A stretch of DNA of 64,000 nucleotides from Escherichia coli (GTDB lineage Bacteria > Pseudomonadota > Gammaproteobacteria > Enterobacterales > Enterobacteriaceae). Positions 21,985 through 63,570 of the stretch are shown here, in pieces. How positions within the stretch are numbered: the stretch's first letter is position 1; every line of letters starts with the position of its first letter. The stretch lies in assembly GCF_050920415.1 (NCBI RefSeq), contig NZ_CP169309.1; one strand, written 5' to 3'. The notes under the pieces were generated by a model. That model had not been told where the DNA came from, made no database searches, and saw nothing but the letters and a program-made list of their open reading frames with translations. The position numbers were made by a program, and so were the translations under genes.

Positions 21985-22398
21985 ATGATGGATATTAAAT
22001 TAATCTCTTTGCAAAAACATGGGGATGAGCGTGGTGCATTAATTGCTCTTGAAGAGCAACGAAATATACCTTTCGAAGTCAAAAGAATATATTACATACT
22101 CGAGACTCTTAAGGGAGTAAGACGCGGATTTCATGCGCACAAGGTTACTCGTCAGTTAGCTATTGTAGTCAAGGGAGCTTGTAAATTTCATCTGGATAAT
22201 GGTAAAGAAACAAAGCAGGTGGAACTTAATGATCCAACAATTGCGTTGCTGATAGAACCCTATATATGGCATGAAATGTATGATTTTAGTGATGATTGTG
22301 TGCTGCTTGTAATTGCGGATGATTTCTATAAAGAGTCTGATTATATACGCAATTATGATGATTTTATTAGAAGAGTAAATTCAATTGAGAATTCATAA
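21985..22398 (+). CDS. fdtA: dTDP-4-keto-6-deoxyglucose 3,4-ketoisomerase (FdtA/QdtA-type cupin)
   Basis: 137-aa ORF; small cupin of the WxcM C-terminal/FdtA type (...RGFHAHK...WHEMYDFS...); sits between rmlA and an acetyltransferase/aminotransferase pair. Galacto- versus gluco-configured product cannot be told by eye. Confidence 0.7.
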
Positions 22399-22852
22399 GC
22401 TAAGTGACGTCCAGACAACATCAATTGGTGATGGAACAACTATCTGGCAGTTTGTTGTAATACTAAAAGGTGCTGTAATTGGTAATAATTGCAACATCTG
22501 TGCAAATACCTTGATTGAAAATAACGTTGTAATTGGTAACAATGTCACAGTCAAAAGCGGTGTGTATATTTGGGATGGCGTTAAAATAGAGGATAATGTT
22601 TTTATTGGTCCTTGTGTAGCATTTACAAATGATAAGTATCCTCGCTCTAAAGTCTATCCTGATGAATTTTTGCACACAATAATACGCAAAGGAGCATCAA
22701 TAGGTGCTAATGCAACCATCCTGCCAGGAATTGAAATTGGTGAAAAAGCAATCGTTGGTGCGGGGAGTGTCGTAACCAAAAATGTACCGCCATGCGCAAT
22801 AGTAGTAGGTAATCCAGCTCGATTTATTAAATGGGTAGAGGATAATGAATAA
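22385..22852 (+). CDS. fdtC: dTDP-3-amino-3,6-dideoxyhexose N-acetyltransferase (hexapeptide-repeat, FdtC-type)
   Basis: 155-aa ORF with left-handed beta-helix repeats ([23 protein letters not shown]...); probable TTG start at 22385 overlapping the fdtA 3' end, start uncertain. Confidence 0.7.
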
Positions 22853-30244: not shown

Positions 30245-31381
30245 ATGGAACTTAAAAAATTGATGGAACATATTTCTATTATCCCCGATTACAGACAAGC
30301 CTGGAAAGTGGAACATAAATTATCGGATATTCTACTGTTGACTATTTGTGCCGTCATTTCTGGTGCAGAAGGCTGGGAAGATATAGAGGATTTTGGAGAA
30401 ACACATCTCGATTTTTTGAAGCAATATGGTGATTTTGAAAATGGTATTCCTGTTCACGATACCATTGCCAGAGTTGTATCCTGTATCAGTCCTGCAAAAT
30501 TTCACGAGTGCTTTATTAACTGGATGCGAGATTGCCATACTTCAGATGATAAAGACGTCATCGCAATTGATGGAAAAACACTCCGGCATTCTTATGACAA
30601 GAGTCGCCGTAAGGGAGCGATTCATGTCATTAGTGCGTTCTCAACAATGCACAGTCTGGTCATCGGACAGATCAAGACGGATGAGAAATCCAATGAGATT
30701 ACAGCCATCCCTGAACTTCTTAACATGTTGGATATTAAAGGGAAAATTATCACAACTGATGCGATGGGTTGCCAGAAAGATATTGCAGAGAAGATACAAA
30801 AACAGGGAGGTGATTATTTATTCGCTGTAAAAGGAAATCAGCGTCGGCTTAATAAAGCCTTTGAAGAAAAATTCCCACTGAAAGAATTAAATAATCCAGA
30901 GCATGACAGTTATGCAATTAGTGAAAAGAGTCACGGCAGAGAAGATATCCGTCTTCATATTGTTTGCGATGACCCTGATGAACTTATTGATTTCACGTTT
31001 GAATGGAAAGGACTGAAAAAATTATGCGTGGCAGTCTCCTTTCGCTCAATAATAGCAGAGCAAAAGAAAGAGCCCGAAATGATGGTCAGATATTATATCA
31101 GTTCTGCTGATTTAACCGCTGAGAAGTTTGCGACAGCGATTTGAAATCACTGGCACGTGGAGAATAAGCTGCACTGGCGTCTGGACGTGGTAATGAATGA
31201 AGACGATTGTAAAATAAGAAGAGGAAATGCAGCAGAATTATTTTCTGGGATACGGCACATTGCTATTAATATTTTGACGAATGATAAGGTATTCAAGACA
31301 GGATTAAGACGTAAGATGCGAAAAGCAGCCATGGACAGAAACTATCTCGCGTCAGTCCTTGCGGGGAGCGGGCTTTACTAG
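30245..31381 (+). mobile_element. ISAs1-family (H-repeat-associated) transposase gene interrupted by a single in-frame TGA (pseudogene)
   Basis: 299-aa ORF (30245-31144) and 74-aa ORF (31157-31381) are in the same frame, separated only by TGA at 31142-31144; the combined about 378-aa product has the ISAs1 motif ...[21 protein letters not shown]... with the stop at a conserved Arg position. Confidence 0.8.
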
Positions 31382-31453: not shown

Positions 31454-33081
31454 ATGAACTTTAAGAATATAATTAGAATAATACTACCTTTTTTTATTTT
31501 CTTGAGTATTTTACTTTACTCAGGAAGGGCGGATAGTGTTTTGTTATTTACTATCGAATACACACTTGCAAGTATGGCAATCTTTCTGATAAAAAGAAAG
31601 TTTATAAGCAATATCTTGTGGGGGATTTATCTCTCAATTTTAGGTGTACAGGCAGCATCGCTATTTAGTTCAGGACAATATTTGATGCCTCTTGCCTTGT
31701 CGAATGCTGCAGAAGTTGAATCGCTAGGCATTGGCGAGGTAATCAAGGTTTTTTCTATTTTTATTTTATTTGTTATAGTTTCATTCGTTACGATGCCTTC
31801 TGGTGCTCTAGTCGGCCGTATTAAATATTATAAATTTAATTTTTTCTGTATAGTATTATTGCTTGTGTGTTCTTTCATAAGCACGGGACCGGTATATGCT
31901 TTTTATGAAACAGCAAAATTGTACTATTTACAGCAAACCTTTAAGCCTAGTGAGAAGATCGGTGATGCCGGGAAATCTTTTTTAAAAACAAGTGTTTTTA
32001 TTAACCCTCTACAGAATAACAACAACTTCAAAGGGCGTAATGTTATTGTAATCTTTGCTGAGGGATTTTCATCGGAGATTATTGGTAATTCAAAAATGGC
32101 GCATTTTCCAATTACGCCTAATTTAGATAAGTTATCTACTGAAGCACTAAGTTTTAAAAATTATTATAACCATACAGCAGTAACCTTTCGAGGTTTAAGA
32201 GGCCAGTTAACTTCTGGCTATCAATTTCGTGATGGGTTAACTGATGCTGGTACTGGTATTGCACAATTATCTAACGTAGAAATTAATAATATTTATCTTC
32301 ATCGTCAAACATCTTTGCCGAATATATTGAAAGAGTATGGCTATAAAAGTTATTTTATAGCGTCTACAGAAAAAATAGCCCACTCAACACTATGTTGAAA
32401 ACGCTTAATTTTGATAAAGTTCTTGGTATGGGAGATTTTATTGGTTATCAACGCGACAGAATGACTGATAAGCAAACATTTAATGCACTGCAATATTTTT
32501 TACGTTCTCAAGAAAATAAAAACGAACGCTTTTTTATTGGTGTGTACCCATCTGGTACTCATCATGGTCAAGATAGTCCAAATGAAAAATATTTTGATGG
32601 TAGCAATCCTCTCTACAATAAATTCTATAACTATGATTTTCAGTTGGGGAAGTTTGTTGATTTTTTTCGGCGCAGTTCATTTTATGGCAATACGTTGTTG
32701 ATAATTACATCGGATCATTCTACATTTCCTTCGACAGAATATAAGAAATCATTTAACAGCGATTCTCGTTATTTTGTGGACAAAATACCATTTCTGATCA
32801 TTGGGAAAAATATTACGCCTGAAGTTTTAGATGCAGGAGGTGAAAATTCTTTAAGTTTCGCGCCAACAATATTGCACATGTTAGGGATTCAGTATTCAAT
32901 GAATTATTTTTTGGGGTGTTCTCTTTTTGATAAGACGTGCACATCACCATTCTCACATCTTTCTGCTATTGGTAGTGATTATTTCAATACAGGCAAAGAA
33001 AATCATGTTGAACTAATTCAAAATAATAGTGGTAATGAATTAATAAAATTAGCCGAACGTTTTTATAACATTAGTGGCTAA
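31454..33081 (+). pseudogene. Sulfatase/alkaline-phosphatase-superfamily membrane enzyme (LtaS/phosphoglycerol- or phosphoethanolamine-transferase-like), frameshifted
   Basis: 314-aa ORF (31454-32398) has N-terminal TM helices then a sulfatase-like domain (NVIVIFAEGFSSE...); the domain continues in another frame as a 229-aa ORF (32392-33081; ...LLIITSDHSTFPS...); frame change lies near an A6 run at 32370-32375. Confidence 0.6.
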
Positions 33082-53751: not shown

Positions 53752-54048
53752 TTAGCGATAGCCTTCTTCTGTATGCAGCAAGGCAAAAAGTTCTGCAACT
53801 CCATTGTTATTAACCGCACTGGTTACTAACACATTGTGCGCTCCAGCTTCCCGTAACCAACTTTTCACCAAAGATATTTGTTCCATACTGGCTAAATCTG
53901 CTTTGGTGACTACTCCAATGACCGGGCGATTCATTGACGAGGTAAAGCCTGGCGAAAAAGGTGACCACGGTGCGTCCGCATTAAGTACCAGCGCGATAAT
54001 GTCTGCTTCGCAGGCACTGACTAACAGAGCACTGTAGAGGCTGCGGTT
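53752..54048 (-). pseudogene. yoeF: EutP/PduV-family GTPase remnant lacking the N-terminal P-loop (yoeF-like)
   Basis: Stop-to-stop frame on the minus strand: ...[84 protein letters not shown]; has C-terminal EutP/PduV character but no GxxxxGKT/S. Confidence 0.6.
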
Positions 54049-54519
54049 TTATCGGTGAGGACTGGCAGCAAGATTTCCAGCCTTTTGACGGTGGGCCTGT
54101 GCAATCGTTATCAGATTCGTATAGCGATTATTCAGTGCTGCTATTGATAGCAGCTGAAAGCGAGATATCCGTACCAGAATAGCTCCCTCATTCTGAGGGA
54201 ACGACGGTAATTTTGATTGCAGAACACAATGCCCGTTTGCTGAATGGTCCGGCTGGTGGGGCTGTAGCATTAATCCATTATTTGAATGAAATCAGTCATG
54301 CCAGAGAAACCGCTGTCAATGACGCATTTTGTCGGACGTTAACACGAGGAAGTCTGGCTATTCCGCAATGCCATCTTCTTTCGTAATGGATTGAGAATGC
54401 TGGATTTTTAATTATATTACGCGCAGTATTAATCGCGTAAATGTTTTGCGGTCAGCAACAGTGGGGGAACCATTGTTCTGTTCAATGAATACCATCATAC
54501 AATTGAATCAGGAGTCGGT

Positions 54520-56957: not shown

Positions 56958-57640
56958 ATGATGCGTCGTGTAAATATTTTTTGCTCATTTGCTCTACTTT
57001 TTGCCAGCCATAATAGCCTGGCGGTAACTTATCCATTACCTCCAGAGGGTAGCCGTTTAGTGGGACAGTCGCTTACTGTAACTGTTCCTGATCACAATAC
57101 CCAGCCGCTGGAGACTTTTGCCGCACAATACGGGCAAGGGTTAAGTAACATGCTGGAAGCGAATCCGGGGGCTGATGTCTTCTTACCGAAGTCTGGCTCG
57201 CAACTCACCATTCCGCAGCAACTGATTTTGCCCGCCACTGTTCGTAAAGGGATTGTGATTAACGTCGCTGAGATGCGTCTTTATTACTACCCGCCAGACA
57301 GTAATACTGTGGAAGTCTTTCCTATTGGTATCGGCCAGGCTGGGCGAGAAACCCCGCGTAACTGGGTGACTACCGTTGAACGTAAACAAGAAGCACCAAC
57401 CTGGACGCCAACGCCGAACACCCGGCGCGAATATGCGAAACGAGGGGAGAGTTTGCCCGCATTTGTTCCTGCGGGGCCTGATAATCCCATGGGGCTGTAC
57501 GCGATTTATATTGGCAGGCTATATGCCATCCACGGTACCAATGCCAATTTTGGTATTGGGCTCCGGGTAAGTCAGGGCTGTATTCGTCTGCGCAATGACG
57601 ATATCAAATATCTGTTTGATAATGTTCCTGTAGGTACTCG
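56958..57640 (+). pseudogene. ldtA: L,D-transpeptidase LdtA (ErfK), 5' portion, interrupted by an IS element
   Basis: [36 protein letters not shown]... with the catalytic region (...[24 protein letters not shown]...); after ...NVPVGTR the frame runs into IS sequence. Confidence 0.85.
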
Positions 57641-57694
57641 TGAACCGCCCCGGAAATCCTGGAGACTAAACTTCCTGAGAAAGAGGTAAACAGG

Positions 57695-58021
57695 ATGACT
57701 AAAAATACTCGTTTTTCCCCCGAAGTCCGTCAACGCGCAGTTCGTATGGTTCTGGAAAGTCAGGGCGAATATGACTCACAATGGGCGGCAATTTGTTCCA
57801 TTGCTCCAAAGATTGGCTGTACGCCAGAGACTCTGCGTGTCTGGGTTCGCCAGCATGAGAGGGATACCGGGAGCGGTGATGGTGGGCTCACCACCGCTGA
57901 ACGTCAGCGTCTGAAAGAGCTGGAACGTGAAAATCGTGAACTGCGCCGCAGTAACGATATCCTTCGCCAGGCTTCCGCTTATTTTGCGAAGGCGGAGTTC
58001 GACCGCCTCTGGAAAAAATAA
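57695..58021 (+). CDS. IS3-family transposase OrfA (HTH DNA-binding)
   Basis: 108-aa [45 protein letters not shown]...; ends in the A-rich run ctggaaaaaataa at the orfA/orfB overlap. Confidence 0.9.
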
Positions 58022-58908
58022 TGCCACTGCTGGATAAGCTGCGTGAGCAGTACGGGGTCGGACCGGTATGCAGTGAACTGCATATTGCCCCGTCAACGTA
58101 TTACCATTGTCAGCAGCAGCGGCATCATCCTGATAAACGCAGTGCCCGTGCGCAGCGCGATGACTGGCTGAAGAGAGAGATACAGCGCGTATACGATGAA
58201 AATCATCAGGTGTACGGTGTGCGTAAAGTCTGGCGTCAGTTGTTACGGGAAGGAATCAGGGTGGCCAGATGTACAGTGGCGCGCCTCATGGCGGTTATGG
58301 GACTTGCCGGTGTTCTCCGGGGTAAAAAGGTCCGCACTACCGTCAGCCGGAAAACCGTTGCCACAGGTGACCGCGTAAACCGTCAGTTCGTGGCAGAACG
58401 TCCTGACCAGCTGTGGGTGGCTGATTTTACTTACGTCAGCACATGGCAGGGCTTCGTCTATGTGGCGTTCATCATTGATGTGTTTGCCGGATACATCGTG
58501 GGGTGGCGGGTCTCATCGTCTATGGAAACGACATTCGTGCTGGATGCGCTGGAGCAGGCGTTGTGGGCCCGTCGTCCGTCTGGCACCATCCATCACAGCG
58601 ATAAAGGCTCTCAGTATGTGTCACTGGCCTATACGGAGCGACTAAAAGAAGCAAAACTGCTGGCATCAACAGGGAGTACAGGCGACTCGTATGACAACGC
58701 GATGGCTGAGAGCATCAATGGTCTTTACAAAGCGGAGGTAATACACCGTAAGAGCTGGAAAAACCGTGCAGAAGTGGAACTGGCCACACTCACGTGGGTG
58801 GACTGGTATAACAATCGACGATTGCTGGGAAGGCTGGGCCATACTCCTCCGGCAGAAGCAGAAAAAGCTTATTATGCTTCCATCGGAAACAATGATCTGG
58901 CAGCCTGA
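58021..58908 (+). CDS. IS3-family transposase OrfB (DDE integrase domain), probably expressed as an OrfAB -1 frameshift fusion
   Basis: 295-aa ORF in the -1 frame relative to orfA; DDE/integrase-core motifs (...HHSDKGSQYVS...DNAMAESINGLYKAE...). Confidence 0.9.
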   Translation: MPLLDKLREQYGVGPVCSELHIAPSTYYHCQQQRHHPDKRSARAQRDDWLKREIQRVYDENHQVYGVRKVWRQLLREGIRVARCTVARLMAVMGLAGVLRGKKVRTTVSRKTVATGDRVNRQFVAERPDQLWVADFTYVSTWQGFVYVAFIIDVFAGYIVGWRVSSSMETTFVLDALEQALWARRPSGTIHHSDKGSQYVSLAYTERLKEAKLLASTGSTGDSYDNAMAESINGLYKAEVIHRKSWKNRAEVELATLTWVDWYNNRRLLGRLGHTPPAEAEKAYYASIGNNDLAA

Positions 58909-58950
58909 GTTCACAGATAAAACACTCTCCAGGAAACCCGGGGCGGTTCA

Positions 58951-59208
58951 ACTCGTGTACAAATTATTGATCAGCCAGTGAAATACACAACGGAACCGGA
59001 TGGATCAAAGTGGCTGGAAGTTCATGAGCCACTGTCGCGCAACCGTGCGGAATATGAGTCAGACCGAAAAGTGCCTTTGCCAGTAACGCCATCTTTGCGG
59101 ACGTTCATTAACGGGCAAGAAGTTGATGTGAATCGCGCAAATGCTGCATTGCAGCGCCGATCAGGAATGCCTGTGCAAATTAGTTCTGGTTCAAGACAGA
59201 TGTTTTAA
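58951..59208 (+). pseudogene. ldtA: L,D-transpeptidase LdtA (ErfK), 3' portion downstream of the IS insertion
   Basis: Continues the ldtA frame after the IS: (T)RVQIIDQPVKYTTEPDGSKWLEVHEPLSRNRAEYESDRKVPLPVTPSLRTFINGQEVDVNRANAALQRRSGMPVQISSGSRQMF*. Confidence 0.85.
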
Positions 59209-59221
59209 GAGCGTTGTTAAT

Positions 59222-59258
59222 TAGAAAGCAAAAAGCCTGCTCGAAAGCAGGCTTTTTT
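59222..59258. terminator. Rho-independent terminator (bidirectional) between ldtA and asnV
   Basis: aaaaagcctgctcgaaagcaggcttttttg hairpin with flanking A/T runs. Confidence 0.75.
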
Positions 59259-59263
59259 GAATT

Positions 59264-59339
59264 TGGCTCCTCTGACTGGACTCGAACCAGTGACATACGG
59301 ATTAACAGTCCGCCGTTCTACCGACTGAACTACAGAGGA
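59264..59339 (-). tRNA. asnV: tRNA-Asn (anticodon GUU)
   Basis: Reverse complement is TCCTCTGTAGTTCAGTCGGTAGAACGGCGGACTGTTAATCCGTATGTCACTGGTTCGAGTCCAGTCAGAGGAGCCA; cloverleaf with GTT anticodon and encoded CCA. Confidence 0.95.
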
Positions 59340-61670: not shown

Positions 61671-61746
61671 TGGCTCCTCTGACTGGACTCGAACCAGTGA
61701 CATACGGATTAACAGTCCGCCGTTCTACCGACTGAACTACAGAGGA
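61671..61746 (-). tRNA. asnU: tRNA-Asn (anticodon GUU)
   Basis: 76-nt sequence identical to the asnV copy, on the minus strand. Confidence 0.95.
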
Positions 61747-63494: not shown

Positions 63495-63570
63495 TCCTCT
63501 GTAGTTCAGTCGGTAGAACGGCGGACTGTTAATCCGTATGTCACTGGTTCGAGTCCAGTCAGAGGAGCCA
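63495..63570 (+). tRNA. asnW: tRNA-Asn (anticodon GUU)
   Basis: Plus-strand copy of the same 76-nt tRNA-Asn sequence, with CCA end. Confidence 0.95.

Follow-up and report, generated by a model that had tools for sequence, protein, structure and literature searches.

An intact IS629/IS1203-type insertion sequence splits ldtA in a small Escherichia coli lineage

Introduction

Insertion sequences (ISs) of the IS3 family are ~1.2–1.55 kb long and are bounded by imperfect inverted repeats that open with 5'-TG and close with CA-3'; their target-site duplications range from 3 to 5 base pairs (bp). The frameshift signal of IS911, one of the experimentally studied members, is an A_AAA_AAG motif with a stem-loop structure. 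In IS3411, stem 1 is found near the 3' side of the shift site, and its apical loop pairs with the internal loop of a second stem-loop 44–104 nucleotides (nt) further on (PMC5009743). Insertion-site polymorphisms of a further member, IS629, are used to mark lineages of E. coli O157:H7 (Rump et al. 2011, PMC3271280). Here we describe an IS629-like element in a 64,000-nt stretch of an E. coli genome (contig NZ_CP169309.1 of assembly GCF_050920415.1; the window), where it interrupts the chromosomal gene ldtA (erfK).

A first-pass annotation, made from the sequence of the window, had described an intact 1310-bp element flanked by direct repeats. Our analysis confirms the central statement, an intact IS brought into ldtA by simple insertion, and nothing that we found contradicts it. 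The element is almost certainly an IS629/IS1203-type member of the IS3 family that transposed into ldtA in the ancestor of a small E. coli lineage.

Results

A complete element interrupts ldtA

The element, its ends and the two parts of the interrupted gene are located as follows.

57641–58950, plus strand: complete IS3-family insertion sequence, probably an IS629/IS1203 isoform, 1310 bp, with its transposase genes oriented as ldtA
57641–57665, plus strand: left terminal inverted repeat (IRL), 25 nt, beginning with TG
58926–58950, plus strand: right terminal inverted repeat (IRR), 25 nt, with CA at its end
57636–57640, no strand: left copy of the target-site duplication ACTCG, abutting the element start
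58951–58955, no strand: right copy of the target-site duplication ACTCG, abutting the element end
56958–57640, plus strand: 5' part of ldtA, codons 1–228, first ATG at 56958, broken off after ...NVPVGTR
58956–59208, plus strand: 3' part of ldtA, codons 229–311 and the stop, encoding the last three YkuD residues and the whole Ldt_C domain

Direct reading of the sequence places the element start, TGAACCGCCCCGG, at 57641 and its end, CCGGGGCGGTTCA, at 58950, and both the length and the TG...CA termini agree with the IS3 family. The IRL and IRR match at 22 of 25 positions (88% complementary). Their terminal 13-mer occurs twice in the entire window, once at each end of the element and in inverted orientation; shuffled sequences gave 0.08 expected matches, and two matches were reached in 0 of 100 shuffles. 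The boundaries could also be set independently: in identical copies at other sites, the flanking sequence already differs right outside TGAACC... and ...GGTTCA. The coordinates, length and matching inverted repeats given by the first-pass annotation are thus exact.

On re-inspection, the flanking ACTCG repeat is present on both sides, a match with a probability of ~1/1024 by chance for a 5-mer at fixed positions. In-silico deletion of the IS together with exactly 5 bp yields a single 311-residue ldtA frame, as had been claimed, and deletion of 3, 4, 6 or 7 bp yields premature stops. The position of the break, previously given as after about codon 228, also proved exact, with 83 ldtA codons lying past the IS.

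Two other readings of the junctions were rejected. A 7-bp repeat, ACTCGTG, around a 1308-bp element is excluded because the flanks of independent copies diverge just outside the element ends, showing that the TG belongs to the element. A 3-bp duplication accompanied by two extra bases fails at the right end, where every other copy has ...GGTTCA directly against its flank.

Transposase genes and family assignment

The element carries two overlapping reading frames, which are here listed with their putative fusion product; the two single frames were taken from the list of open reading frames and from Pfam matches, and the ribosome-binding motif from reading the sequence.

57681–57686, plus strand: Shine-Dalgarno-like AAGAGG of orfA
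57695–58021, plus strand: orfA, 108 residues, with an HTH_Tnp_1 DNA-binding domain
58021–58908, plus strand: orfB from its own ATG, 295 residues, with an integrase-core (rve) catalytic domain
57695–58908, plus strand: OrfAB transposase, 404 residues, join(57695..57985, 57985..58908), with HTH_Tnp_1, HTH_21 and rve domains

Both frames are full-length and in the −1 arrangement that had been proposed: orfB is in phase −1 relative to orfA, and its frame is open from 57955 to 58908, overlapping that of orfA by 66 nt (57955–58021). The OrfAB fusion matches the NCBIfam model of IS3-family transposases, NF033516, with 370 bits (cut-off 160), and Pfam finds HTH_Tnp_1, HTH_21, rve (E = 2.3e-25), rve_3 and rve_2 in it. 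D244, D303 and E339 form the catalytic DDE triad; 35 residues separate D303 from E339, and a lysine stands at position E+7. The exact OrfA protein is present on 851 contigs in public databases. A consensus scan of the IRL gave no convincing sigma-70 promoter for orfA, the only match being a weak one (9/12) at 57595–57623, within ldtA; inspection of the joined ends of a circular intermediate, by eye only, gave no convincing promoter either.

ISfinder regards sequences with roughly 95% or more identity as isoforms. Over positions 1–1310, the element is 97.2% identical at the nucleotide level to a plasmid copy annotated as 'IS629 transposase OrfB' (AP024474.1), and end to end it is 96.9–97.1% identical to copies annotated as 'IS3-like element IS1203 family transposase'; the values for a copy on an EDL933 plasmid record and for a Shigella flexneri plasmid copy are 96.5% and 95.0%. 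In addition, OrfB clusters at 90% identity with proteins that carry the names 'IS3-like element IS629 family' and 'IS1203 family transposase'. Because of the 96.9–97.2% identity to annotated IS629 and IS1203 copies and this shared cluster, the element is probably an isoform inside the IS629/IS1203/IS3411 group of the IS3 family. The IS629-like identity suggested by the first-pass annotation therefore stands.

Within this group, the element represents a distinct sequence subtype, since only 43 of the 6993 records that it matches among complete E. coli genomes reach 99% identity or more, most of the others lying between 95 and 99%. Most of the 43 derive from isolates of bovine, food and wildlife origin and from the large plasmids of these. 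Among the 5426 complete E. coli genomes, 4250 contain related IS sequence, which is also found, plasmid-borne, in Escherichia, Shigella, Salmonella and Klebsiella. Given this spread through E. coli genomes and plasmids of four genera, the special association with Shigella and pathogenic E. coli that had been suggested for IS629 is too narrow.

Programmed −1 frameshifting

Three features bear on how OrfAB would be made.

57982–57985, plus strand: most likely −1 frameshift motif, T_TTT(G), with the TTT codon at 57983–57985 after T57982, 5 nt upstream of stem 1
57976–58092, plus strand: apical loop–internal loop (ALIL) pseudoknot, a frameshift stimulator (Rfam RF01497), with stem-loop 1 at 57991–58007 and stem-loop 2 at 58054–58092
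58013–58018, plus strand: A6 run directly before the orfA stop TAA (58019–58021), probably not a functional slippery site

The ALIL model RF01497 matches over its full length (model positions 1–117 of 117; 120.9 bits, gathering score 50; E = 3.4e-32), and the T_TTT_G motif falls inside the conserved start of the model, UAUUUUGC. Both hairpins are recovered in the ViennaRNA centroid structure, and the Prokaryotic Genome Annotation Pipeline (PGAP) annotates the ALIL feature in identical IS copies as well. Reading the alignment by hand, we found that the 5-nt pairing between loop and internal loop is kept, GUUCG (57997–58001) with CGGAC (58059–58063); compared with the ALIL consensus, one pair of this loop helix is altered on both sides (C-G to U-A), and one is now a wobble. 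A slip at T_TTT_G is possible because the orfB frame is already open from 57955, and the resulting fusion (...QASAYF|CEGG...) is exactly the RefSeq protein WP_404853199.1, which PGAP annotates in identical copies as a product of 'programmed frameshift'.

The first-pass annotation had instead drawn attention to an A-run at the overlap. The A6 run is real and falls within the 66-nt overlap, and the orfA stop follows it directly on the 3' side; a stop codon can favour slippage of the tRNA in the P site. Slippage by −1 on A_AAA-type tetramers is possible in E. coli (PMC4066793). However, the run follows stem-loop 1 and precedes stem-loop 2 by 35 nt, which leaves it with no stimulator at the usual spacing of 5–9 nt. 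Read in the zero frame, the sequence is G_AAA_AAA, which does not form a canonical X_XXY_YYZ heptamer. It also sits in the poorly conserved stretch of the ALIL model between the two stem-loops, where the consensus, AAgaaaUGA, contains no conserved homopolymer, whereas UAUUUUGC is conserved. Finally, the fusion protein expected from the A-run was not found in a collection of 15 billion proteins, in contrast to the RefSeq protein that corresponds to the T-run. Frameshifting at the A6 run, as the first-pass annotation had implied, is accordingly unlikely.

Taken with the Rfam model, the RefSeq and PGAP annotation and the agreement with a review's description of the IS3411 signal (PMC5009743), these observations make T_TTT_G at 57982–57985 very probably the −1 slip site of OrfAB. 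No mention of IS3411, IS629 or IS1203 occurs in the supplements of Sharma et al. 2014. For the IS629-type group, the comparison suggests that ribosomes shift frame at the T-run ahead of the ALIL pseudoknot rather than at the eye-catching A-run by the orfA stop.

Distribution and age of the insertion

The empty site is nearly universal in the species. A 220-nt reconstruction of uninterrupted ldtA matches 5414 of the 5426 complete E. coli genomes, with a best match of 99.5% identity, and the 15 listed matches all fall in annotated ldtA (15/15). The occupied site, with both flanks and the IS in one piece, was found in a single one of these genomes, MFDS1022581 (99.9%), isolated from animal-source food in South Korea. 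This genome, a very close relative with a sequence of its own, is collinear with the window and ~99.98% identical to it, with 7 substitutions over 50 kb and, along the adjoining 9.3 kb, 1 substitution and 2 gaps. Also, three draft assemblies (GCA_000194575.2, GCA_002133425.1 and GCA_036681285.1) are identical to the window across the 2414 bp that surround the insertion. In N96, the complete genome next in similarity (98.0% over 25 kb), ldtA is intact.

As the occupied site is shared by one complete genome and three drafts, the insertion marks a small lineage. We conclude that it is a single event common to a small clone, recent at the scale of the species and not private to one isolate. The earlier description of a simple, probably recent transposition holds as far as the simple insertion is concerned, given the perfect duplication and the empty site elsewhere; 'recent' has to be read as lineage-restricted, the event being shared by MFDS1022581 and the three drafts. 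Both the element and this ldtA insertion are already known from public records, where they are annotated, and the event is an ordinary one.

Recombination between two IS copies, or an assembly artefact joining unrelated flanks, could in principle produce a similar picture, and copies of this subtype that lack a duplication at three other sites (see below) indicate that IS-mediated rearrangements do occur in these genomes. At ldtA, however, the IS lies between the two halves of a single gene, which keep their order and reading frame and border on a perfect 5-bp duplication; the conserved synteny cobT-ldtA-tRNA-Asn-nac is kept; and the same junctions are found in five independent assemblies, counting the window. 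An origin other than simple insertion is therefore extremely improbable.

The ldtA insertion offers a clean marker for this small lineage, usable for strain typing. The marked lineage has an O2/O50-type O-antigen cluster and a katP plasmid in its closest complete genome, and it has been isolated from animal-source food; bovine-associated strains are the origin of related copies of the IS.

Activity and other copies

No further or partial IS copies were found in the 64-kb window by blastn and tblastn. Elsewhere, 1310-bp copies without a mismatch are present at at least 9 other sites in different strains, both chromosomal and plasmid-borne, which shows that this sequence variant transposed recently. 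In MFDS1022581, copies are few overall, with two matching places on the chromosome and three on its katP plasmid. The large plasmid of this genome (NZ_CP169400.1, 69951–77260) carries katP, for a catalase/peroxidase, beside an IS copy with three substitutions; this copy sits in an IS66-family element and is flanked by a 3-bp TAC duplication. The chromosomal copy could plausibly have come from this katP plasmid.

In the window copy, the inverted repeats, orfA, orfB, the DDE residues and the frameshift signal are all intact. A complete-looking relic that has lost the ability to transpose might nevertheless be suspected, as the same copy is labelled 'frameshifted' in the RefSeq record of MFDS1022581. 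The label is due to the two gaps noted above, 1-bp deletions that both lie in homopolymers, from A5 to A4 (window 58324–58328) and from G4 to G3 (window 58500–58503; NZ_CP169399.1). Because the window and the three draft assemblies have the intact sequence at these positions, the deletions, and with them the 'frameshifted' transposase of that record, are probably homopolymer sequencing errors. Together with the identical copies at other sites, this makes a dead relic very unlikely. The window copy is potentially active, as the first-pass annotation had proposed, judging from its undamaged sequence and the occurrence of identical copies elsewhere.

Length of the target-site duplication

We compiled our own tally of duplications over 20 loci, using copies of the subtype that are at least 99.7% identical and occupy independent sites, with the following outcome.

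3-bp duplication: 8 sites; GAA, TAC (three different sites), GCC, ATC, GGA, ATA
No duplication: 3 sites; consistent with later rearrangements
5-bp duplication: 1 site; ldtA, ACTCG

Two points weigh against the account given here. First, the 5-bp ACTCG is unusual for the subtype, which has 3 bp at the 8 other independent sites with a duplication (8 of 9 when ldtA is counted), and the duplication of IS629 has been reported as 3–4 bp (Rump et al., PMC3271280). Second, the assignment of the slip site, although the most likely one, draws on where the Rfam model lies, on PGAP annotation and on the description of IS3411 in a review (PMC5009743). A duplication of 5 bp lies within the range of the IS3 family and outside the usual length for IS629, which is a typical and not a defining feature. 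No published list of IS629 duplications emerged from a literature search. We regard the 5-bp duplication as solid but atypical, a minor curiosity.

A further observation from the tally is that three of the eight 3-bp sites are TAC preceded by T or TT (..GTTAC|IS|TAC.. twice and ..ATTAC|IS|TAC..), a hint of a target preference.

At the left end of the element, the TAA at 57687–57689 that closes the truncated ldtA frame stands directly after the AAGAGG of orfA and 5 nt before the orfA ATG. Since the truncated frame ends right at the orfA Shine-Dalgarno sequence, ldtA could be coupled to the transposase, by translational coupling or by read-through that activates the transposase. Two speculative readings, that the 5-bp duplication would stem from an alternative strand-transfer geometry of the IS629 transpososome and that coupling of ldtA transcription and translation to transposase expression would make this copy unusually active, are decidedly doubtful.

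Consequences for the host gene

The product of ldtA is one of three redundant L,D-transpeptidases (LdtA, LdtB and LdtC) that attach Braun lipoprotein (Lpp) to peptidoglycan. Its reconstructed 311-residue form scores 695.9 bits against the LdtA equivalog NF007563 (cut-off 517) and contains the domains YkuD (97–231) and Ldt_C (235–303), with H192 and C208 present. An uninterrupted coding sequence is absent here: the truncated frame runs into the IS and stops at TAA 57687–57689, which would give a 243-residue product with a 15-residue IS-encoded tail. The break after R228 retains His192 and Cys208, replaces the last three YkuD residues with a tail beginning EPP... and removes all of Ldt_C. The three lost residues align with the C-terminal end of stand-alone YkuD structures. 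The claim that the insertion leaves the YkuD catalytic region intact is therefore no more than approximately true: it applies to the catalytic residues, but not to the end of the YkuD domain.

Because the YkuD fold of the remaining fragment is cut short at its end and Ldt_C is missing entirely, ldtA is most likely a pseudogene, with loss of function predicted; PGAP likewise annotates both fragments as pseudogenes in the near-identical record of MFDS1022581. The redundancy of LdtA, LdtB and LdtC leads us to expect a mild envelope phenotype at most. Downstream of ldtA, a sequence scan identified one further feature.

59230–59257, no strand: terminator-like hairpin between ldtA and the convergent tRNA-Asn gene

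A polar effect on neighbouring genes is not expected, because this hairpin and the convergent tRNA-Asn gene follow ldtA and its transcription unit contains no downstream gene.

Other features of the neighbourhood

The region beyond ldtA holds three tRNA-Asn (GTT) genes within 4.3 kb, at 59264–59339 (minus strand), 61671–61746 (minus strand) and 63495–63570 (plus strand). Mapping from the near-identical record places nac and cbl between the first two of them and the start of yeeO after the second. In other E. coli genomes, IS629-type copies adjoin tRNA-Asn genes of the same region.

Further upstream, the annotation of a 99.99%-identical record places an ISAs1-family transposase pseudogene with an internal stop at ~30245–31381, between the O2/O50-type O-antigen cluster and gnd; beside it are two adjacent 'sulfatase-like hydrolase/transferase' genes (31454–33081). 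An acyltransferase gene of the O-antigen cluster, at ~22385–22831, is annotated in the same 99.99%-identical record as two partial pseudogene fragments. Upstream of cobU, at ~53752–54386, the MFDS1022581 record has a partial gene of the EutP/PduV family together with a cobalamin-biosynthesis gene that contains an internal stop; the two look like what is left of a degraded cob/pdu region.

Discussion

How the element reached ldtA can be outlined from the established biology of the IS3 family, that is, of IS911, IS2, IS3 and IS629 with its excision enhancer IEE. Translation of orfA would yield a small helix-turn-helix regulator. A fraction of the ribosomes would slip by −1, most likely at T_TTT_G (57982–57985) under stimulation by the downstream ALIL pseudoknot, and would thereby produce the 404-residue OrfAB DDE transposase. 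OrfAB would then move the element by the copy-out-paste-in route, with a circular intermediate, and the duplication would arise because the target is cut in a staggered manner.

As a fixed chromosomal copy that is common to a clonal group, absent from its relatives and probably inactivating for the gene that it interrupts, the ldtA insertion resembles the IS629 markers of E. coli O157:H7. It differs from them in the host lineage (O157 versus an O2/O50-type O-antigen cluster) and in the IS subtype, and the ldtA site does not appear in the main text or the supplement caption of Rump et al. 2011 (PMC3271280).

With IS911, IS3 and IS2, the element has in common the predicted production of OrfA and of OrfAB by −1 frameshifting, a DDE (rve) domain, short TG/CA repeats, a duplication of 3–5 bp and, presumably, copy-out-paste-in transposition via an IS circle. 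The frameshift signal is different, probably consisting in the window element of a T_TTT_G tetramer and an ALIL pseudoknot.

The closest likeness is to IS629, IS1203 and IS3411, from Shigella sonnei, E. coli O111:H- and a citrate-utilisation plasmid, respectively, which share with the window element the 1310-bp length, the TG...CA ends and the layout of orfA and orfB. Compared with IS629, for which duplications of 3–4 bp are reported (PMC3271280), the window element stands apart in its 5-bp duplication and as a distinct subtype. The ALIL-type frameshift pseudoknot was described in IS3411 (PMC5009743), and the window element carries a full-length match to the same model, RF01497.

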